From the NCBI GenBank assembly GCA_000165345.1, contig CM000434.1:576001-640000 (forward strand): DNA of 64,000 nt, given 5' to 3'. A program made the translations under genes and the position numbers. Numbering within the stretch: the stretch's first letter is position 1; each line of letters starts with the position of its first letter. This document shows, in pieces, positions 391-16,376 of the stretch. Below the pieces are notes generated by a model. That model saw only the letters and a list, made by a program, of their open reading frames with translations, ran no database searches and was not told the DNA's origin.

Positions 391-2358
391 CTAAATGGCT
401 ATTTTTTGTTCTTGCAGGAAAGGTCCAGTCTCAACTAAATAAAAGACCGTTAGTGAGAAAATGAAGAATGTAAGGATTGGGTATAGAACAGGGAATATAT
501 CAAATACCGACCCAACTTGTATTTCAGCAGACCTCTTGAAAGAATTAAGTGAATCAAAGGGGTCAATTTGATTTGAGTTAGGAAAAGAATAAGCTGATGC
601 TAATTCTGATTTCTGTAGATCAAGAGTAGTTTTTGGTAATATCCAGCCTTCTTTCCAATAATAAGCTTCTAAAAATGCAACTACTGGTCCTTGTTCAAAA
701 ATGTCTTTATCATAGTCATCATCAGTAAGATCGTTTATACTACTCAACATCTGATTAGTTACTTCTGCTGGAGTCTGGTTTGGACGATAGCAGTCAAAGC
801 AAGATCCTATCGGAGGGAATGACACTCCAGTTCCAACGTAAGAAATGGATGACGATCTTTTTTGTTTTAAATGTTCATAACTACTTTCAGTTGCAACTCT
901 TAGAGTTACTAGATTATGAACTCTGAACAGCCAAAAAACCAGACCCTCAGCCTCATAAAGTAAAACTGGGAATTTGTTGTTATTCATGGGAGGAATATAG
1001 GAAGTTCTATCACATGTATTATTATTAATCATTGTTTCAAAATGTTCTTTACAGCTTTGGCATACCATGAAATATTTGACCGTTTCAGCTATTCTATTTA
1101 CGACTTGCCCAGGCGTTAGTGAAGGCCCATTATATAGAGGACAGCCTTTTCCTTGTTGTTGAACGCCTTTAAGCAATGATATAGACCAAGAGTGGAAAAG
1201 AAGCCAAATTCCGCAGAATAAAGACTTTTTGCATATATAAAATGTAGGATCACTACCATTTTGTGTAGTACTTATACCTTCAACAACAACTGTTTTTATA
1301 AAGCTTTGCCAACTTTCCAAAGAAAGTTTGGAATAAATTGAATTATCCCTGTTGTCCATATAATTTTTGAGAAATACCAATATTTCTTCAAGTTTTGCTC
1401 TCGTTCTTTTGCTTGGAATAAGCACCCAACTAGTTTCAACAAATCTATATAGGGCATTTAAACGCCTCTTCTCCAGAAATTGTGAAGTATTTACTACATT
1501 GTTTCCAAAAAAGACCCAATTATGTAAAATATAAAATTTGGTCGTAATTGCATCAACTATTGCATGGGAAGGGCTAATTTGCATCGATTCTTCGCTCCAT
1601 CTACCAAAGTGATTTGAAATGCCAGTTTTTGTTTGTGATATTGCTGAAGTTGATAGTACAGAGTTATTTAATGGCTTGAATACGTTTGATAAGTCAAAAG
1701 CTCGGATAATTGAACACATTAAAAATGTTTCTTCATTTATTACTGGCATAGAAATTGACTTGCTTTTTAAATGCTTCAAATAAGGCACTTCCATCAACTT
1801 TGGAATATGCTTTTCTGGAAATACAATATGCTTTTCTGATTTTCTTGTACAGTTTATATCGCTAAACTCTGTATAATTAATTAATGACTCTAAATTTATT
1901 GTTTTATCCTCGGGACCAATTAGCCTTAGGTTTGGGAGTCCATCTATTCCCCAAATTGAGCATTCGCTATATCCCTTCCCACATTCAAATGCATAGAATT
2001 TTACGCCTGTAGGAGTCAAAGATTCAGCAACTTTTTTTAAAGGATTTGAAGCCATATGGCAGTACGCACAGAATGAAGAGTAAAAAATAATTACTTTTGG
2101 TCCATGTAAATCATTTAAAACTATGTCCCTTAACTCCCCTACGGAAGATAATTCCTTAATAAATGCTGATTTTGTATAAATCCCTTCCTTTGTTTCTATT
2201 CTAAGAAGATGAGCACCCACAAACCATGTGCAAATATACCAAATAAAAAATAATAAGCAACAAAAAATATATCTTGACCACAACATTCTGCTCAATATTC
2301 CATTACTTTTGTCAATCAAGTGATTTTCTCTTTTGTATTTCCATGAAAAACGATTCAT
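391..2358 (-). CDS. Quiescin-sulfhydryl-oxidase-like (QSOX) flavin thiol oxidase: thioredoxin-like domain plus Erv/ALR domain, N-terminal signal anchor, C-terminal TM
   Basis: 655-aa ORF with an ATG start. Thioredoxin-like segment FYSSFCAYCHMASNP carries a CxxC. Erv/ALR-like segment WLLFHSWS...CPLYNGPS...FMVCQSCKEHFETM has the W..H, CxxC and HF motifs. Hydrophobic N-terminus CCLLFFIWYICTWFVGA. C-terminal hydrophobic stretch FPVLYPILTFFIFSLTVFYLV. Confidence 0.7.
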   Translation of the reverse strand: MNRFSWKYKRENHLIDKSNGILSRMLWSRYIFCCLLFFIWYICTWFVGAHLLRIETKEGIYTKSAFIKELSSVGELRDIVLNDLHGPKVIIFYSSFCAYCHMASNPLKKVAESLTPTGVKFYAFECGKGYSECSIWGIDGLPNLRLIGPEDKTINLESLINYTEFSDINCTRKSEKHIVFPEKHIPKLMEVPYLKHLKSKSISMPVINEETFLMCSIIRAFDLSNVFKPLNNSVLSTSAISQTKTGISNHFGRWSEESMQISPSHAIVDAITTKFYILHNWVFFGNNVVNTSQFLEKRRLNALYRFVETSWVLIPSKRTRAKLEEILVFLKNYMDNRDNSIYSKLSLESWQSFIKTVVVEGISTTQNGSDPTFYICKKSLFCGIWLLFHSWSISLLKGVQQQGKGCPLYNGPSLTPGQVVNRIAETVKYFMVCQSCKEHFETMINNNTCDRTSYIPPMNNNKFPVLLYEAEGLVFWLFRVHNLVTLRVATESSYEHLKQKRSSSISYVGTGVSFPPIGSCFDCYRPNQTPAEVTNQMLSSINDLTDDDYDKDIFEQGPVVAFLEAYYWKEGWILPKTTLDLQKSELASAYSFPNSNQIDPFDSLNSFKRSAEIQVGSVFDIFPVLYPILTFFIFSLTVFYLVETGPFLQEQKIAI

Positions 2359-2418: not shown

Positions 2419-2583
2419 TATAATTATTAATAATAAAATAACCAATAAAAAGGCCAGCTTGCATAACGTGTTTAAAATGATTATTATTTATACCGCTTTG
2501 AAAATTAATAATATTGGAAAATTGTTGAACTGCAATAATAAAGTGTATGTAAGGGATTCATCTTGCCTAACAGTAAATCCTTG

Positions 2584-3570
2584 ATGGATGCTAAAAATCA
2601 GGTACAGAAGAGTTCTTCTTCTTCGTGCGATCAAGAAGATACGTCACCACAAAATAATACCATAAATAGTCAAAATCAATGCGATCAACAAACTTCAACT
2701 CAGAATAATGTAGATAAAGATTTGAGCCTTGAAGACATTTTATATGAAACTAATCAGCAAGCAATCTCTTACAATCGAACAAACTATGGCTTGCTAGGAA
2801 TACTCAACGTAATAAGAATGACCGATTCTGATTTGAATATTCTGGCTCTGGGAACTGATTTGACTACGCTAGGGCTCAATTTGAATTCATCTGAATGTCT
2901 ATATCTTAATTTTGACTCTCCCTGGAGTTCTAGCAAACCAGCTCAGCCTGAATCTGAAACAAACGAAATAATTCAGGCATTTGCAAACACTCCTAATAAT
3001 GTTTCACAAATCATTGGGTTGAAGTCAACGTATGTCCAGAAATTTGCCCTAGAAACCTTGTTTTACATATTTTATAATATGCCACAGGATTTGCTTCAAG
3101 GATTTGCTGCTGTAGAACTGTGTAATAGAGGATGGTTATACTATCCTGATTCATTGCAATGGTATTCAAAGGTTCAAAATGAAGAAAAGCAGACAGCTGA
3201 GTGGCAAGTTTTTGATACCGATAAATGGTGCAAAGTCCCTATATCTGACCCTCCATCAAGTAATTTACTTTCGATAGATGAGATTCGTCCAAGCGTGGAG
3301 GAAGGAGTCAGAATCCACTCCAAATGGATACAAGAGCAAAACCAAATTTATCAAATTGTCCAACAACAAATGCAGCAACAATCGAATAGTCGTAACAAGG
3401 GTTCCGAACCACAAATTAATTCTAATATGAACAATATCAGTGATTTTAGTTCAGCATATAATCAAAGAAGTATTCAACAAACTTTTTCCCAGGCTGGGAA
3501 CAACCAGACAATTAATTCAAACAATTATTCTAATTTTAGATCGTCCAATAGGCATAATTCAAGCTTTTAA
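2584..3570 (+). CDS. CCR4-NOT complex subunit with NOT2/NOT3/NOT5 C-terminal domain
   Basis: The ORF track starts at a TTG at 2563; the first ATG is at 2584 (MDAKNQ...). The segment TLFYIFYNMPQDLLQGFAAVELCNRGWLYYPDSLQWYSK matches the NOT-box. The N-terminus and tail are Asn/Gln/Ser-rich low complexity. Confidence 0.6.
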   Translation: MDAKNQVQKSSSSSCDQEDTSPQNNTINSQNQCDQQTSTQNNVDKDLSLEDILYETNQQAISYNRTNYGLLGILNVIRMTDSDLNILALGTDLTTLGLNLNSSECLYLNFDSPWSSSKPAQPESETNEIIQAFANTPNNVSQIIGLKSTYVQKFALETLFYIFYNMPQDLLQGFAAVELCNRGWLYYPDSLQWYSKVQNEEKQTAEWQVFDTDKWCKVPISDPPSSNLLSIDEIRPSVEEGVRIHSKWIQEQNQIYQIVQQQMQQQSNSRNKGSEPQINSNMNNISDFSSAYNQRSIQQTFSQAGNNQTINSNNYSNFRSSNRHNSSF

Positions 3571-6780: not shown

Positions 6781-9700
6781 ATGCCAGAGAGGTTCAAAGG
6801 CATTAAAATCAATACAATATGGGCAATTTTTCGGGTACAGTTTTTAGTATTATTACTTTTTCTTAATAATTTAGCTTGTGAAAATGAAATTTTGGATGAA
6901 TCGGAAAGAAATGCAGCTCTTATAAACAGTTCTTCACATACAAATCCGGATTCAATTCAAAATGAAGTAGCAAACCCAATGAATGAAATTACTCTCCTTT
7001 CAAGTTCAGGAGAAATTTCAAGCTTTAATGCTTTTGAGCTAAATGTTCAAGATCAATGTAATCAACTTTGGACATATAGGAATAAGCTGGTGCATGAAGT
7101 TTCAAATATAGTCAAATTGCATAAACAGTTTGTAATTTTTCTAAATAAAATCGATCCTAAAAAAAATACGGTTCATTTGGAAGAGATATTCAAGAAATCT
7201 TTGGATCTTTCTTTAGCCAGCAATCGTAATGAAGAAATCAACAAAAAATTTAAAGAATATCTTGGGTTGGCAGTAGATTACAGGTTCATCTCTTCAGATA
7301 AAGATGAATCAACAGTAAAAATACTTATTTCCAACAGATCCCCTTTGAAATCTTCACTAAAAGATCTTCTTATTTTAAAAAATGAATATTTAAAGTATAT
7401 TAGTAATTTTGATATTTGCGTTAAAAAAAAAAAAAAAGTGATAAAAAGTGGATCTGACTCTCTAAATGCGTTGATAAACCTTTCTAAACTTTTGAATATT
7501 TCTGAAAACGCATTATATGATGAAAACATTGGCTATCTTGAACAAATTTCCTCAATTACAAACAATCTTGATTCTAATCTTAGTTTTATTAAAACATTAA
7601 AAAAACTTCAAGAAGTTTGCGATAAAGGTCTTGCTCAGGACGATCAATCAAATAAAAAAAGTAAGATTAAATGGTTAAAAAAAAACTCTAATAAAATTAA
7701 CAAAACTATGAGTAGTTTTGAAGATATTTTTAAGATGAATTCAAAAAAAGTCCATAATTTGTTAAATTGTATTAACCACTTTCAAACCTCGAACTCAATT
7801 AATGATAACACTCTAGCAATGGTTAATACAATAGGAAACCAGATTGTAAATCACTCTATAAATAGAAGAAATGTCTTATCAGTTATCTCATCTAGGTATA
7901 CAATTACAACATTAAATACTTATATACTGAACAATAGGTTGTTTTCTTTATGGTTATTTGTTCAAAAAAGATTAACAACCATTCAAATCGCAATTAAAGT
8001 TATGAAAGAATCCAAAGAATTGACTAATCGTATGAATTCTGTTTTTTCTATGGATGAAGCAATTGATTTACTAACAAAGTGTTCCGAAACTTTAAGAAAA
8101 ACTGCATCAGATTGGAATGTTTTTTTTTCTGATAAAAATACACTAATCATTAAAAAACTACACAAAGAAACACTTGAACAGTTAAACCATTATAAATTTG
8201 AGGGTGATCGAAATACGCTTGCAATGTATATGGAATGGATTTGGCTAAATAATCATATTCAAAGTGTTATTGAGCAAGGATATGATGCATTCGAGGGAAT
8301 TATTAAAGGCACTTTGAAAAGTCCGCTTACAAATTGTGCAAAAAATTTAAGCTCACTATATAAGAACCTCAAATCGGAATTTAGTGCTAAGGAAAATTTT
8401 AGTGAGAAAACTATTAAAAAAATCAACAAAGAATATAGAAGTGTATTAAATGATGTTTCAGGTCATTTATTAAAGCAAATAGATTCTCTTTTCTCTCTAA
8501 AACACTCATTTTTGTGGCCACATAATAATGCGACTTTAATTTCAGCAATATCAATGTATAATCGAACTTCAGAGTTTGTAAGCTCAATAAACTTGCCTCA
8601 AGAACAAAATTCATTCGAAAAGCCAAATTATTCTTATGAGCTGTTAAAACAACAACAAATAATTACTAATGGATTTTCTACATTATATGAAAATATTAAA
8701 ACTAGATTTAATTGGGATTTAAGCTTATTCCAAACTGAATTCGGATATGTGAAAAATATTAATCTTGGATTAGATACAGAAGAAACCATTAATTTTTCTA
8801 AACTAAAGGTTTATCAAGATTCTTCTGAACAATTTGGAGAATGGTTTGAAAGCACACTTGAGTTTTTGAATTTGAAAGAAAATTTCTCAAAAGCAAAGAA
8901 TATTCTTGAGCAAGCAATTCAATTCAGATTACAATTTATACAACAGTGGTCCGATATAATTGCAAAGATTATAAATAAAGTAGGGAATCCAACAGCATTA
9001 AGTATTAGTAAAATATCTGAAGAAGCCTACACATACTATTTACAATATCAAGTTTCAAAATCAAAGGAGTTTTCGAATTATTTTGAGAGTGATTTATCTA
9101 TTCTGAAGTACGTAGATGTTGTGGATAATTCACTATCTGATTTAAACAGAGAAAGTTTCGTCTCAAAATTTGAAACTACAAATGCGCCCAATTTAGATGG
9201 TTCTTATCATGGCGATGATGAATTTCCATCTGTATCATCTATTAAAAGTTACTTAACGGATTTAAAAAATAGAGTTGATCATTATTGCAGTTATGAACAA
9301 AAAAGAAACAAAAATGATGAGGATTACCTCTCAATTGTCAGACAGATTTGCGATAAATTTTCCATCATTTTTTCTACTATTAATCAAAATTTAAAAGGAG
9401 TAGATTCAAAATTGCAAAGGGTTTATTCAGATTTAGAATCTCAGAAAGAAGATATTTCGAAACTTGATACAATTATTCAAGATTGCATTTCCTTAGATAA
9501 TAAAGTAGGTAGAGTTAAATGCTGGATTCCAAATCAATCTATTGAATTACCACTGAGAAGGGCACTTCAAATAAGGAAGGTAATGAATAATTGGTTAAGA
9601 GAAACTATTAAAACAAAAGTACTTGTATTTTCAAATTTTATTGAAGATTGCTTGAAGTTGAACTTTAAGGGATCCTTGATTTTCCAAAACAATGAATCAA

Positions 9701-11235
9701 ATAAAGTTGAGCAAACTCAAATTGAAAGAATTAATTCTTTCCAATTATTATTAAAGTTAATAAATGATTTAATGCCAAATATTGTCGAGGAATTAAATAC
9801 ATTAGAGACTATTTATTTGAAATACTATCAGAATAAGATAAATGAAATAACATCTGCATCAAAGTTACTTTTATTTAATTATTTGAAACTTAACTCCATG
9901 AAAACTACTCTAATTCATAATTATGGAAAGGCTAATTTATTTCAAAAGATTTTCAGATTTCCTAAGCTTTTACTATCCAAAGATGAAGTCCATAACATAG
10001 AAAGTTCTACATTCGCATTTGACAGTCCTGTAAATAATAACGCAACTTATGCAGCAGATTTAACTGATTACATTAAAAATAATCAGCTATCTTCAAATAA
10101 TCACACTATTTTGTTAGGAAAATATCTCAAAGCACTTTCAACATTAAAACATAGAATTGAGGATATTCCACAAATAAATGATAATAACTCATCATTATTA
10201 AATGAAAATCTAAAGTCAGAAATTGAATTTGAGAAATATAGAAACATCGAGGAGAAGTCATTATTGATTCTCGGCGAGTCAGATAAATATCTCAAGCTTG
10301 CAAATATCGAGCACTTTAGATTCTACACTATTCGGAATATAACGGGCAATATAACTGATGTAATTTCAAAACTTTCGGAGGAAATTAAATTAAAAGAAGA
10401 AAAACTAGAAAAAAGAGAAGAAGAAATTGCAAATACTAATTGTTACAGACGGTGGAAATGGAAAAAAAGGGTTAAGAGGCGAAAAATGAAAAAAATTAAA
10501 GATGAAAAAATAGATAAAATGATCAAAATTAATAAATCTAACGCTAATTTGAATAATTTGAAGTTAAAAAAGAAAGAAGCTAATGGAAAACTAAAGTTAT
10601 TTTTGACAAAGACAATAAACATTGAAAATTTTGATACAAGCTGCAATCCAGTAGAAGATCTTGAAAGTATATCATATGACGACAAAAGCGATTTAGAAAG
10701 CTTCCAATTTGATGATTTATACAAGTTTGATGAAAGGCCCGGAAGATACAATCCCAAAAATCAAGAAGAACAAGAGATTGAATATGATGATGATACTGGA
10801 GGTACAACTGAATATGGAAAGAAACCCAATTCGCTTATATCAAAGATAAGCACAGCTGTAGATATGGCTGTTACAATTAATAACTCAATTAGACAGTATA
10901 AGGAAATCAAAAATGAATTAGAACAAAGTGGAATCGAATTTGGACAAGAAAACTCGGGAGTAAATTTAATGGCAGGGTTTGACGTACTGAATGCATTGAC
11001 CGGAGGACCTACTGAGGATTTGAGTGCAATGTTAGGTTCTATTAACGAGCAAGATCAAGTTTTTAATGAGGCCGATATTTTGGGCGAATTACAAACAGGT
11101 GAGATGCCAAATGGCGTGGAAAAGGAAGTCAATAGTAGGCCTTTCGAAGGCTTGGATATTTCATACGATGATTTTAAACGAAAGGTTGAATTCGAGCTTA
11201 AAAACTCTGATTTGAATTTTGATTTTGACGATTAA
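6781..11235 (+). CDS. Large (1484 aa) lineage-specific secreted-type protein; Asn/Lys/Ser-rich, with a coiled-coil and basic cluster
   Basis: A single uninterrupted ORF. The N-terminus FRVQFLVLLLFLNNLAC looks like a signal peptide. A highly basic stretch RRWKWKKRVKRRKMKKIKDEKIDK lies near residue 1220. The C-terminus is acidic. No recognisable catalytic domain. There is an A15 homopolymer inside the CDS at 7427-7441. Confidence 0.5.
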   Translation: MPERFKGIKINTIWAIFRVQFLVLLLFLNNLACENEILDESERNAALINSSSHTNPDSIQNEVANPMNEITLLSSSGEISSFNAFELNVQDQCNQLWTYRNKLVHEVSNIVKLHKQFVIFLNKIDPKKNTVHLEEIFKKSLDLSLASNRNEEINKKFKEYLGLAVDYRFISSDKDESTVKILISNRSPLKSSLKDLLILKNEYLKYISNFDICVKKKKKVIKSGSDSLNALINLSKLLNISENALYDENIGYLEQISSITNNLDSNLSFIKTLKKLQEVCDKGLAQDDQSNKKSKIKWLKKNSNKINKTMSSFEDIFKMNSKKVHNLLNCINHFQTSNSINDNTLAMVNTIGNQIVNHSINRRNVLSVISSRYTITTLNTYILNNRLFSLWLFVQKRLTTIQIAIKVMKESKELTNRMNSVFSMDEAIDLLTKCSETLRKTASDWNVFFSDKNTLIIKKLHKETLEQLNHYKFEGDRNTLAMYMEWIWLNNHIQSVIEQGYDAFEGIIKGTLKSPLTNCAKNLSSLYKNLKSEFSAKENFSEKTIKKINKEYRSVLNDVSGHLLKQIDSLFSLKHSFLWPHNNATLISAISMYNRTSEFVSSINLPQEQNSFEKPNYSYELLKQQQIITNGFSTLYENIKTRFNWDLSLFQTEFGYVKNINLGLDTEETINFSKLKVYQDSSEQFGEWFESTLEFLNLKENFSKAKNILEQAIQFRLQFIQQWSDIIAKIINKVGNPTALSISKISEEAYTYYLQYQVSKSKEFSNYFESDLSILKYVDVVDNSLSDLNRESFVSKFETTNAPNLDGSYHGDDEFPSVSSIKSYLTDLKNRVDHYCSYEQKRNKNDEDYLSIVRQICDKFSIIFSTINQNLKGVDSKLQRVYSDLESQKEDISKLDTIIQDCISLDNKVGRVKCWIPNQSIELPLRRALQIRKVMNNWLRETIKTKVLVFSNFIEDCLKLNFKGSLIFQNNESNKVEQTQIERINSFQLLLKLINDLMPNIVEELNTLETIYLKYYQNKINEITSASKLLLFNYLKLNSMKTTLIHNYGKANLFQKIFRFPKLLLSKDEVHNIESSTFAFDSPVNNNATYAADLTDYIKNNQLSSNNHTILLGKYLKALSTLKHRIEDIPQINDNNSSLLNENLKSEIEFEKYRNIEEKSLLILGESDKYLKLANIEHFRFYTIRNITGNITDVISKLSEEIKLKEEKLEKREEEIANTNCYRRWKWKKRVKRRKMKKIKDEKIDKMIKINKSNANLNNLKLKKKEANGKLKLFLTKTINIENFDTSCNPVEDLESISYDDKSDLESFQFDDLYKFDERPGRYNPKNQEEQEIEYDDDTGGTTEYGKKPNSLISKISTAVDMAVTINNSIRQYKEIKNELEQSGIEFGQENSGVNLMAGFDVLNALTGGPTEDLSAMLGSINEQDQVFNEADILGELQTGEMPNGVEKEVNSRPFEGLDISYDDFKRKVEFELKNSDLNFDFDD

Positions 11236-11331
11236 TCAAATTGATTTTTTTTATTAACAAAGCTAAATTACAAAAAAAAAAAAAAAAATATGCAAAAAAC
11301 TTCTAATTTAGAGAATTAAGTACTCATATAG

Positions 11332-11934
11332 TCAGTCAGTCATACCTGGTACTTTATTTATTGGTTTTCTACGTCTAACTTGTTTGCTTTTAGGTTTATT
11401 TGAGCTTTTCTCTGTTTCCTCGCTTCCTACACTTGTTAATGAAGCTTCAGTGTAGGATCTTTTTGATTTTTTATCTCCAACAACTTTCCAACCTCCTGAA
11501 TCATTCTTATCTATTTCAAATGATAAGCCTTGTATATGTTTTGTTGACGGAACAAATTGTTCACTCTTTTCAGGAATTTGTTTTTCCTCGTCCTCGCTTC
11601 CTTCAGTATCTAAAGGCGGAATAAATGGCTTTGATAGAGTTTTTTTTTGATTAGATTTGGAACTTTGCTGCACGATCTGTTGAGGTTCTTTATTATATTT
11701 CTGTTTATTATTCCCCTTCTTTTTATTTTGTTTCTTGACCTAATTAAATAATTCGAGTCAATTTGCTAGTTTAAATAAACACTTTAAACTCACCTTCTTC
11801 TTTGTTAACTCAGCATAGCAGATAAAAGGAAACACAATTGAGAGTGTAATCAAAGTAAAAGAAATAAAAATGGCAGTGGGGTTGCCTACTGAAAGATTTT
11901 CTCTAATTAATTTAATCAAATTTACGTCAAGCAT
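11332..11934 (-). CDS. Small two-exon gene encoding a ~185-aa signal-anchor / Lys-rich protein
   Basis: The ORF track reports only 11332..11673, starting at a GTG. That frame stays open upstream to an in-frame TAG at the string TTAATTAG|GTC, which is acceptor-like. 44 nt further up on the minus strand is a canonical donor GAAGAAG|GTGAGT. This gives an intron at 11750..11793 and exon 1 at 11794..11934, starting at the ATG at 11934. Exon 1 encodes MLDVNLIKLIRENLSVGNPTAIFISFTLITLSIVFPFICYAELTKKK; exon 2 is 11332..11749. The 44-nt intron length matches intron 2 of the MOD5 gene in this window. Confidence 0.4.
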
Positions 11935-12104
11935 TATTAATAAAATCTTAAATAAAAAAAAAAAAAAATCTTTCCGCCAATAATTATTCAGGGGTGAAAT
12001 TTCAAAATCGGAAAAATCAATTTAATTGCGAACCAAATTGTAGGGAAGATTAATGTGATAAATTAAAAGCATTACTCAAACTAAGTTGCTAATACTAAAT
12101 TCCA

Positions 12105-13085
12105 ATGCAAGAGCTAGATTCATTGGAGAATACTAATATCGAAACAATTGAATACAGCGTTGACTTTCAAAACGAAGGGGTCTGCAAATTTTTATTTAAG
12201 CCAGATCACTATGCTCTTTTTTCCAAATTAAAGAGTCTTCTAGATAATGAGTGTTTCGATCTTGAAAATCTTGATATTTCAACACAAGTCATAGATTTGA
12301 ACCCACAACATTATACTGCGTGGTACTTCAGAAGAAAAATCATTCGCGAAAATTATGTTGAACATGAAAATAAAACGGAGTTCCTTAGAGAAGAATTAAG
12401 ATTCGTTAGAGGTATTTGTGAAAGAGCTCCAAAGTGTTATCAATCATGGTGGCATATGAGAGTTATTAGAGAATTACTTGGATTTGACATTGAAGAATTA
12501 AATTTCATAAGTAAGCAGCTGGAATTTGACGCAAAAAATATGTATGTGTGGAATCATAGGACTTGGTTTATTAGGAAATACAATTCTGTTGAAAATGATT
12601 TACTTATTAGTGAGTTGGATTTTATCTCAAAGTTGATTTCTGAGGATTGCAGAAACAATAGTGCCTGGTGTTACAGGCATTTTATTTTCACTAATTTAAA
12701 AAAAATGAATGCATTAAAAGAGTCTGATCTACTTGAGGAGGTAGATTACATAGTTAATTGGCTGATGTTTGCTCCACACAATGATTCAATATGGAACTAT
12801 ATAATTTCATTCTTTAGCAAAATAATGGTTAATGGAAATGTTAACAAAGAAACCTTAATTAAGAATTTGAGTCTTGAAAATGCGCCTAAGAGTTTTATAG
12901 ATGCAATTGATGAAATTTATACTAATCATTATGATAGTTGCCATCAGGTTGTGTATATTAAGGCTTGTATGGAATATGAAAAAGGTGATACTGATTTTGC
13001 TTTAAAAGCTTTCAAGCTTCTGCAATCAGTGGATCCAATAAGAAAATTCTACTGGAAATGGAGGGCAGATAATTTAAAAACTTGA
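12105..13085 (+). CDS. Protein prenyltransferase alpha subunit (FTase/GGTase-I alpha, RAM2/FNTA-like)
   Basis: 326-aa ORF with five tandem PFTA repeats built around W..RR/W..R motifs: TAWYFRRKII, QSWWHMRVI, YVWNHRTWFI, SAWCYRHFIF, SIWNYIISF. Confidence 0.8.
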   Translation: MQELDSLENTNIETIEYSVDFQNEGVCKFLFKPDHYALFSKLKSLLDNECFDLENLDISTQVIDLNPQHYTAWYFRRKIIRENYVEHENKTEFLREELRFVRGICERAPKCYQSWWHMRVIRELLGFDIEELNFISKQLEFDAKNMYVWNHRTWFIRKYNSVENDLLISELDFISKLISEDCRNNSAWCYRHFIFTNLKKMNALKESDLLEEVDYIVNWLMFAPHNDSIWNYIISFFSKIMVNGNVNKETLIKNLSLENAPKSFIDAIDEIYTNHYDSCHQVVYIKACMEYEKGDTDFALKAFKLLQSVDPIRKFYWKWRADNLKT

Positions 13086-13431
13086 AGTGCATGTGTATAT
13101 TTAATAAATATTAATTAAATTCCTGTAATTTATTCCAAAATGCACTAAAATTAATTTCTAAACAACGTTTTTATCAGAAAAGTACAGGGATTCTTCCAAA
13201 TTGTTTATTTCATCAAAGTTTACAGTATTCTCAACGGTCTATAGGAATAATTATAAATATTATAAGGTAATCTTTCTTTTTTCAAACTCACCTCCGTCTT
13301 TCCTTTCAATCTAGCAATAGAAAAAACTCTTAACATTTGAAGGCAAAATCTAGATGATGTTAGGATTTGTTCAAATATATCAGTGGCCTAGAATGTTATT
13401 AGTGAATTAACTAACGCGTTAATATTTATAT

Positions 13432-13899
13432 TTAACTTACTATCTGGTTATTTCTTAAATCGGCAATTTTTTTTGTAGCAAAAAGTCTTCGAATATCACC
13501 ATTTAAGAATAATAATGAAAGGCAGGTCAATGCAACAACAAAGTCAAATACATTATTTACTTTGTTAAAAAATCTTTTTTTCATTAAGAATAGTTTAATT
13601 ATTACTTCAAATGTCAAGGTTAGTGTTATAATTGTTTCCAGGAAAATAGAAAATCTACTTCCTGATTGAGCCCTAAACAAGCCACTGAAAAGAACCAAGA
13701 TGTTTAATAAAAAAATTCCAAGGTAGAGATATTTTGAAAACTCAGAATAGTATAATCTTTTAACTATTGTAATAGCCCTTTCCTCACATGTTAAATTTGA
13801 AGCCCAAAATGAAAACCCTTGATCTCTGGAGCTTCCGTTAATTTCAAAGTTGTGAAAATCGGTACTAGTAAGTCCTCCAGGGTATCTATACATATCCAT
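13432..13899 (-). CDS. Hypothetical small membrane protein (2-3 predicted TM helices)
   Basis: 155-aa ORF with an ATG start. Hydrophobic segments LYLGIFLLNILVLFSGLF, IFLETIITLTLTFEVIIKLFLM and FDFVVALTCLSLLFL. No recognisable family. Confidence 0.35.
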   Translation of the reverse strand: MDMYRYPGGLTSTDFHNFEINGSSRDQGFSFWASNLTCEERAITIVKRLYYSEFSKYLYLGIFLLNILVLFSGLFRAQSGSRFSIFLETIITLTLTFEVIIKLFLMKKRFFNKVNNVFDFVVALTCLSLLFLNGDIRRLFATKKIADLRNNQIVS

Positions 13900-14971: not shown

Positions 14972-16376
14972 ATGTGTTTTATTTCATTGAATTCGTATAT
15001 TAAAGATGTCCCAGTTATTTTCATTTTTGGTACAACAGGTAGATTAACTTATTACATTCAATAAGGCTTAAATAACTTTTTTAAATCTTTGTTATTTCTA
15101 TAATGTGTAGCTTCTGGCAAAACTCGTTTATCTATAGATATCTGGAAATATCTTGACAAAAAAGTATGTTTATTCAATTCATATAGAAAACCATATTTTC
15201 TTTTTAGGGATTTAAATCAGAAATAATAAATTGCGACTCAATGCAACTATACAAAGGCTTTGATATTGGAACTGCTAAAGTATCCAAAGAAATTCGTAAT
15301 AGAATCCCTCATCACCTATTAGATGTTTTTGATATTGATGAAGATTGTACAGCCTCCAAATATATCAGTATAGCAGTACCAATAGTAAGTTGTGATTTAA
15401 AAGTAAATTCAGTGCATTTATATCACATATAGATCGATAGATTGATCAGCGAAAATGTTACTCCAATTATTGTTGGTGGCACTCACATGTACCTTAAAGC
15501 GTTGATTTGGAAGTCTATTATTGACTCAGAAACATGTAGTAGCGTAAATCCTTCAATTAAAGATGAAGAATACTCAAACTTCACAAACGAGGAGTTGCTT
15601 GAACAGCTTTCGAAGATTGACCCTGAAAGAGCATTGTCATTAAATATAAATGACCGACGAAAAATAATCAGAGGGATAGAGGTAAATTTTTATAAATATT
15701 TATTAATCACAGTTAAGTAGATTCATAGATTTATAACACAAACGGGTTAACATTTACAGAGTTAAAGAAAATTCATCCATACAAAGTTAGATACAACAAT
15801 AGTGTATTATTTTGGGTAAGAAATAACAATATAAGAGAATGCATAGATATAAGAATAAATGAAATGATTAATGTAAGTTGCAATTCAGCGTCATATTTAA
15901 ATTTGAACATTCTTCCATAGGATGGATTATTAAAAGAGGTTTTTTTACTTAAGGAGAGGTTATTAACTTGTAATAAATATATTGGTTTATTACAAGGAAT
16001 AGCCTACAAAGAATTCATAGATATTCTCGACAAAAAAACAAAAATAGAAGACATTTCCGAAGAAGAACTCAATATATGTATTGAAAATTTGCGTATAAAG
16101 ACGTTTCAATACAGTAAGAGACAAGAGAAATTCATTAAAAAACATATAATTAATCGCGGATTAAATGTAAATATATTAGAATTTGATGGTGAAGTATCAG
16201 ATAGTCAGAAATTGGAACTACTTGAATTTAATTTTCAAAGTACTTCAATTATTTATAAATACTTGTCTAAATTATTTAATTTAAAGAATAACTCTGAAAG
16301 CAAACAAGTTTATTCATCTTGGGAAAAGTCAGTGTTAACTCGCGCATTCATGATTCTGGATAAAAAATTAAGTTAA
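14972..16376 (+). CDS. MOD5: tRNA dimethylallyl (isopentenyl) transferase, MiaA/MOD5 family; 6 exons
   Basis: Exons are 14972..15038, 15111..15163, 15208..15384, 15433..15681, 15729..15872 and 15921..16376. Introns are 72, 44, 48, 47 and 48 nt. Their donors are GTAGAT, GTATGT, GTAAGT, GTAAAT and GTAAGT; all acceptors are TAG. The spliced protein reads [66 protein letters not shown]...RIPHHLLDV...[15 protein letters not shown]...IRGIEIYNTNGLTFTEL...PYKVRYNNSVLFW...LQGIAYKEF...FQYSKRQEKFIKK. Across those segments it matches the MiaA/Mod5 consensus: P-loop GTTASGKT, DSMQx[20 protein letters not shown], GY(K/R)E and AKRQ.TW. The ORF track shows only three fragments: 15241..15432, 15442..15720 and 16089..16376. 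Confidence 0.75.

Follow-up and report, generated by a model that had tools for sequence, protein, structure and literature searches.

We describe a gene of two exons on the minus strand of Cryptosporidium parvum chromosome 6, located at 11934..11332 between cgd6_2500 and cgd6_2510; all coordinates refer to the window, i.e. the whole stretch of 64,000 nucleotides that was analysed. Very probably this is an ordinary protein-coding gene from whose transcript a 54-nt intron of the canonical U2 type (GT-AG) is removed. The spliced 182-aa product agrees residue for residue with GenBank QOY41133.1 (CPATCC_0014050 / CPATCC_002785, C. parvum IOWA-ATCC), and the gene model is thus already known. Since the exact model is public and the intron is typical of the genome, the finding is an ordinary one. 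A sequence-only reading of the same DNA had proposed that an intron joins an ATG exon with a transmembrane (TM) helix to a Lys-rich open reading frame (ORF). This central claim holds, because the annotated spliced product is identical and the junction is conserved across the genus.

Gene structure and the 54-nt intron

The coding part of exon 1 (11794..11934, minus strand) consists of an ATG followed by 46 codons and, as judged by translation, ends in phase 0. Its product, MLDVNLIKLIRENLSVGNPTAIFISFTLITLSIVFPFICYAELTKKK, opens with a short helix at the N-terminus, which is followed by the TM helix and by the first KKK. The spliceosomal intron follows at 11740..11793 (minus strand); it is 54 nt long, lies in phase 0, reads GTGAGT...TTAATTAG and has a GC content of 24%. 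The coding part of exon 2 (11332..11739, minus strand) contributes 135 codons plus a TGA stop (11334..11332) and encodes a Lys-rich disordered tail. Both exons share a common reading frame and the spliced product has 182 aa. At the donor, GAAGAAG/GTGAGT (slash at the splice site), the GT occupies 11793-11792 and the GTGAGT 11793..11788. The acceptor is TTAATTAG/G, and its TAG at 11742..11740 is the in-frame stop that bounds the downstream ORF at its 5' side. Both splice sites had been recognized in the sequence-only reading, and so had an exon 1 that begins with an ATG (at 11934) and encodes one hydrophobic helix; the helix quoted there lies inside MLDVNLIKLIRENLSVGNPTAIFISFTLITLSIVFPFICYAELTKKK. 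The intron length given at that time, 44 nt, was a miscount by 10, as the distance from the GT at 11793 to the AG at 11740 is 54 nt. The interval 11750-11793, which had been suggested for a transcript test, is likewise short at the 3' end and stops inside the intron. The predicted product of ~185 aa, anchored and highly basic, is indeed anchored and basic, but its size by translation is 182 aa.

The length of the C. parvum intron is divisible by three, yet two in-frame stops are located inside it, a TGA at 11760..11758 and the TAG at 11742..11740. In the 182-aa product Met occurs at residues 1 and 180 only. As exon 2 lacks any in-frame ATG ahead of codon 180, it is not translatable on its own. 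The 113-aa 'GTG-start ORF' is an artefact of a bacterial-code ORF listing. Simple ORF calling lists only a 58-aa and a 113-aa ORF, which bears out the earlier remark that the ORF track misses the gene.

In the proposed pathway the 54-nt intron (11793..11740) would be spliced out, so that exon 1 (11934..11794) would be joined to exon 2 (11739..11332). The spliced mRNA would then give rise to a 182-aa protein with an 18-residue N-terminal segment, a TM helix at residues 19-41 and a basic disordered tail of 141 residues. A conserved block inside the intron, AAATTGACTCGAATT (11750..11764, minus strand), is a candidate branch-site region: its TTGAC fits yUnAy, and the A in question is 18 nt away from the 3' splice site. 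The block is kept in the C. parvum clade, and related ACTYGAAT blocks are found in C. ubiquitum, in the SRR31860986 taxon and in C. serpentis. From this sequence pattern, AAATTGACTCGAATT may be the branch region. No clear branch-site consensus has been described for C. parvum (PMC2483917).

Conservation of the junction and alternative readings

We compared orthologous loci, with exon boundaries set by exact translation to the annotated protein. Immediately behind the TM helix and the KKK, and at one common codon boundary, every one of the 11 taxa has a phase-0 intron of the GT..AG type. Its length is 54 nt in C. parvum, C. hominis and C. ubiquitum, 53 nt in C. meleagridis, 55 nt in chipmunk genotype I and in C. 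canis, 57 nt in the SRR31860986 taxon, 80 nt in C. serpentis and 92 nt in both C. xiaoi and C. ryanae. The C. felis intron (GTAAGT...GATCAG; locus sequence 1501..2090) is the shortest of the 11 with 44 nt. In 7 of the 11 taxa the length is not divisible by three, so in those species only splicing joins both conserved frames. The donors of the orthologues read GTGAGT, GTAAGT, GTATGT or GTAAGC. When exon 1 is read through unspliced, a stop is met in all 10 annotated taxa tested; for the eleventh taxon, the Logan ORF call continues past exon 1 and terminates inside the intron. These read-through tails vary in length among the orthologues and are not conserved. Synteny is maintained at every locus, with farnesyltransferase alpha divergent upstream and a gene of ~1480-1530 aa convergent downstream.

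Sequence divergence is more rapid in the intron than in either exon. In C. ubiquitum, exon 1, intron and exon 2 have identities of 0.84, 0.59 and 0.81 to the C. parvum DNA; in C. canis the values are 0.74, 0.55 and 0.73. Within exon 1, differences at codon positions 1/2/3 amount to 6/2/14 in C. ubiquitum, 5/0/22 in the SRR31860986 taxon and 5/4/24 in C. canis; for codons 72-182 the counts are 9/9/41 (C. ubiquitum) and 19/18/62 (SRR31860986 taxon). The excess at third positions indicates that both exons are under coding constraint in the frames that the splice connects. The intron-length variation between species very probably settles the gene structure without RNA data. The SRR31860986 taxon is represented by a Logan contig of 34.7 kb; its coding sequence is visibly GC-richer, and its DNA identity to C. 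parvum is 80% in exon 1 and 70% in exon 2.

One might argue that the same donor is used with a distal main acceptor, GTGCAG/ at 11668, which would give a 126-nt intron and a product of 158 aa, or that both acceptors are used. We consider this improbable. The segment in question, the first 24 codons of exon 2 (11668..11739, minus strand; VKKQNKKKGNNKQKYNKEPQQIVQ), is treated as intron in the C. hominis model CHM_6g2505 (158 aa), so a public annotation does adopt the distal site; moreover, the 72-nt difference is in frame and CAG is a legitimate acceptor. However, these 24 codons (codons 48-71) show the third-position excess typical of coding sequence, with differences at positions 1/2/3 of 3/3/11, 6/8/14, 7/5/12 and 5/6/14 among the orthologues. 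The sequence [VLI]KK.NK.K right after the proximal acceptor is retained out to C. serpentis, whereas the distal CAG is replaced by CAA in C. ubiquitum and C. felis. The proximal AG is also the first AG past the conserved intron block. In addition, the CHM annotation series truncates MOD5 to 143 aa, which makes it the less reliable source. The distal site might nevertheless see minor use. A related and rather unlikely idea is that alternative 3' splice sites produce two in-frame isoforms (182 and 158 aa) and thereby toggle a 24-residue poly-Lys juxtamembrane segment; the motifs GGWKVV..KKSKR and KPINKVPGMTD might in that case recruit a cytosolic partner, e.g. ribosomes, RNA or acidic lipids.

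Splicing at the proximal acceptor also has to be weighed against no splicing at all, in which case two independent ORFs would be present, a 58-aa membrane micro-protein (11934..11758) and the 113-aa ORF (11673..11332). ORF callers do report both, and a 58-aa 'putative integral membrane protein' has been deposited for C. hominis UKH1. We regard this reading as very improbable nevertheless. For the 113-aa ORF, initiation at GTG is valid under the bacterial code only, in an exon that is AUG-less before codon 180, and open, conserved coding sequence continues 5' of this GTG for another 22 codons, right up to the acceptor. The read-through tails of exon 1 are variable in length and unconserved, and GT and AG mark one common codon boundary in all 11 taxa in spite of frame-shifting intron lengths.

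The weakest reading, that a stretch of AT-rich non-coding DNA flanked by two real genes resembles a gene by chance, deserves almost no credence. It is true that GTRAGT...YAG pairs which join open frames arise randomly: a scan of the 64-kb window found 37 donor/acceptor combinations, many of them within long ORFs, and in a single genome such pairs are no rarity. Against this stand the genus-wide conservation of the protein, whose aligned full-length orthologues are 48-98% identical to that of C. parvum, together with invariant motifs, a third-position substitution bias and conserved synteny. By the alignment and the codon-position pattern, chance is effectively refuted already. We take the comparative evidence to be decisive on this point, as the junction is kept in 11 taxa while the body and the length of the intron change.

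Flanking regions and the encoded protein

The start codon of the gene is separated from that of the divergent cgd6_2510 (farnesyltransferase alpha) by a common intergenic region of 170 bp. Here an E2F-like motif, TTGGCGGAAA, is located at 11971..11980 (minus strand), 36 nt 5' of the ATG. It is kept in all 11 aligned Cryptosporidium taxa, with the form TTCGCGCAAA in C. serpentis, and TTGGCGGRAA occurs a single time in the 64-kb window. The motif resembles E2F-like motif 4, TTTGGCGGGAAV, which is the most abundant class of upstream motifs in C. parvum (PMC3734150). Open chromatin at 5' ends is dominated by the E2F-like motif class (bioRxiv 10.1101/2025.01.17.633476). The position of TTGGCGGAAA, between two divergent genes either of which it may serve, fits a putative promoter upstream of exon 1. 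A second upstream block conserved across Cryptosporidium, ATTTCACCCCTGAATAA (12000..11984, minus strand), adjoins TTGGCGGAAA in the same 170-bp region. On the downstream side, 96 bp (11236..11331) lie between the stop codons of our gene and of the convergent cgd6_2500 (stop at 11235), so the 3' UTRs of both genes, unless extremely short, must overlap; the middle of this gap holds a T16 run (minus strand, at about 11275-11290). An Rfam scan of 11200-12150 at E <= 1 gave no match to a non-coding RNA.

The encoded protein contains a TM signal-anchor helix at codons 19-41 (11812..11880, minus strand; PTAIFISFTLITLSIVFPFICYA), with a Kyte-Doolittle maximum of 2.38 over 19 residues, centred on residue 30. 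There is no cleavable signal peptide ahead of this hydrophobic helix, and the helix is kept in all orthologues. Its flanks differ in net charge, with +8 on the C-terminal and 0 on the N-terminal side. By the positive-inside rule the helix would most likely be a reverse signal-anchor, with the N-terminus outside or lumenal and the Lys-rich tail cytosolic. An AlphaFold2 run with the orthologue alignment had a low-confidence mean pLDDT of 58.6; it placed helices at residues 2-15 and 19-50, reached a pLDDT of ~80 only in blocks of the 19-50 helix and left the remainder without regular structure.

The tail carries 33 K+R against 19 D+E and has a pI of about 9.9. Four motifs are conserved in it: the juxtamembrane K-run, P-F-I-P-P-L-D-T-E-G-S-E-D-E, FVPSTKHIQGLSFEID..GGWKVVGDKKSKR, and KPINKVPGMTD. 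The GGWKVVGDKKSKR motif (11458..11496, minus strand) covers residues 129-141, of which W131, V134 and K137-R141 are invariant in the alignment. KPINKVPGMTD forms the extreme C-terminus (11335..11367, minus strand; residues 172-182), with I174, N175, V177, P178, G179 and M180 invariant, and is retained in C. serpentis and C. ryanae as well. The invariant islands of the tail in the alignment are LDTE.S, FVPS..K.IQGL, GGWKVV..KKSKR and KPINKVPGMTD. In our best reading the cytosolic, disordered and basic tail would act as a membrane-tethered docking region for partners that recognize the conserved motifs.

A Pfam scan of the protein and all 11 orthologues returned only sub-threshold, composition-driven matches (TRAP_alpha, OATP and others), and a PDB profile search gave nothing below E = 0.1. 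The TRAP_alpha match (PF03896) has a best E-value of 0.0033 and was seen in 8 of 11 members, but it is weak and spans the TM helix and the Lys-rich cytosolic stretch only (profile positions 113-169). Membership was rejected, since with 14.6 bits the C. parvum protein falls well short of the gathering score, 24.7 bits. With only 18 residues N-terminal to the TM helix, the protein is also without the lumenal domain that makes up the bulk of TRAP-alpha. Among 1.84 billion representative proteins, an HMMER profile search detected outside Cryptosporidium only two giant low-complexity proteins and nothing credible. We class the gene product as a predicted single-pass membrane protein, restricted to the genus, whose tail is basic and disordered.

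Public annotation and comparison with other introns

The gene is also annotated as cpbgf_6002503. Orthologues of 182 aa are deposited for C. hominis (PPS97786.1, OLQ17653.1), C. meleagridis (POM84567.1, KAK9172076.1) and C. tyzzeri (TRY51060.1), and a homology search added orthologues of 180-185 aa from chipmunk genotype I, C. ubiquitum (cubi_02375), C. canis, C. felis and C. xiaoi. Those of C. ryanae and of the gastric C. serpentis came from the HMMER profile search; the C. serpentis orthologue is more divergent and was found by profile search only. In the 2004 Iowa II protein set the neighbours are present and the gene is absent. The orthologue table of the 2015 re-annotation (supplement) passes directly from cgd6_2500 to cgd6_2510 with nothing between. 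Hence the word 'cryptic', which the sequence-only reading had used for the intron, is justified relative to the 2004 and 2015 annotations but not relative to later ones, which contain the gene. All introns of the IOWA-ATCC annotation are described as supported by RNA-seq, a general statement that does not name this gene individually (PMC8744675). In the papers searched we did not find the gene individually named under cgd6_2503, cgd6_2505, CPATCC_0014050, CPATCC_002785, GY17_00000257 or cpbgf_6002503.

Public models of the gene are in conflict, with 182 aa in several annotations, 158 aa in CHM_6g2505, and 58 and 186 aa elsewhere. The 58-aa record PPA64909.1 is exon 1 read into the intron, and the 'partial' 186-aa record WRK32852.1 starts 4 codons upstream of the ATG. 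The importance of the finding reaches little beyond annotation hygiene. A reading of raw sequence recovers a real gene, overlooked in the C. parvum annotations of 2004 and 2015, at a locus whose public records disagree (58, 158, 182 and 186 aa). The protein itself could be of some small interest for tagging in cell biology or as a marker specific to the genus.

Five gene products of the window exactly match C. parvum proteins, and the GC content of the window, 33%, fits the genus. The convergent neighbour cgd6_2500 (6781..11235) is an ORF of 1484 aa that matches EAK89894.1 and QOY41132.1. On the other side, cgd6_2510 (farnesyltransferase alpha; 12105..13085) is an ORF of 326 aa, beyond which cgd6_2520 and an Rpr2/Rpp21-like gene follow. 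For cgd6_2520, an 'ion transport domain' protein (13158..13899, minus strand), a model of three exons gives 211 aa identical to QOY41135.1; its introns, 13440..13388 and 13291..13239 (minus strand), have 53 nt each. A one-intron model did not reproduce the 211-aa protein, whereas the two-intron model does. The 2004 model of this gene (155 aa) is the first ORF only, read into the intron. The gene for MOD5, a tRNA dimethylallyltransferase (14972..16376, plus strand), was rebuilt with five introns, and its 381-aa product is identical to QOY41137.1. The MOD5 introns, all on the plus strand, are located at 15039..15110 (72 nt), 15164..15207 (44 nt), 15385..15432 (48 nt), 15682..15728 (47 nt) and 15873..15920 (48 nt). 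Intron 1 interrupts the P-loop (GTT/ASGKT), and other public MOD5 models of 143, 319, 361 and 600 aa show that the annotations disagree strongly. Elsewhere in the window, ORF calling starts an ORF with a NOT2/NOT3/NOT5 domain (2563..3570, plus strand) at a TTG. A GTATGT...AAATAG of 125 nt (2545..2669, plus strand) would join a 53-codon upstream frame to this ORF and is probably a further intron whose 5' exon has been missed.

Within 5 kb, three genes thus contain eight introns of 44, 47, 48, 48, 53, 53, 54 and 72 nt. The sequence-only reading had rightly assigned 44 nt to MOD5 intron 2 (15164..15207 in the rebuilt gene), but from the supposed equality in length it had postulated a special class of minimal-length introns. 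With 54 nt instead of 44 nt the equality fails and the argument for such a class loses its basis. For C. parvum introns a median length of 61 nt and a mean of 82 nt have been published (n=213; PMC2483917), and a later re-annotation reported a mean of 99 nt with 22% GC (n=688; PMC4637869). The lengths of the neighbouring introns, 44-72 nt, are a spread around the known short mode of the genome and form no discrete 44-nt class.

In length (54 nt) and composition (24% GC) the intron described here is within the distribution of the species. It shares with other short C. parvum introns the GTRAGT donor, the YAG acceptor and the AT-rich sequence. It differs from them in its donor, as GTGAGT is a minority variant and GTAAGT, the dominant form, starts 84% of C. 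parvum introns (PMC2483917). MOD5 intron 2 is likewise a short phase-0 GT-AG intron in a neighbouring gene on the same chromosome segment, but with 44 nt and GTATGT...TTTTAG it is unlike the 54-nt GTGAGT intron. The closest known counterparts are QOY41133.1 and its orthologues, which have the two-exon structure, the position of the intron and its phase in common with the gene at 11332..11934; from QOY41133.1 itself our model does not differ in any respect.
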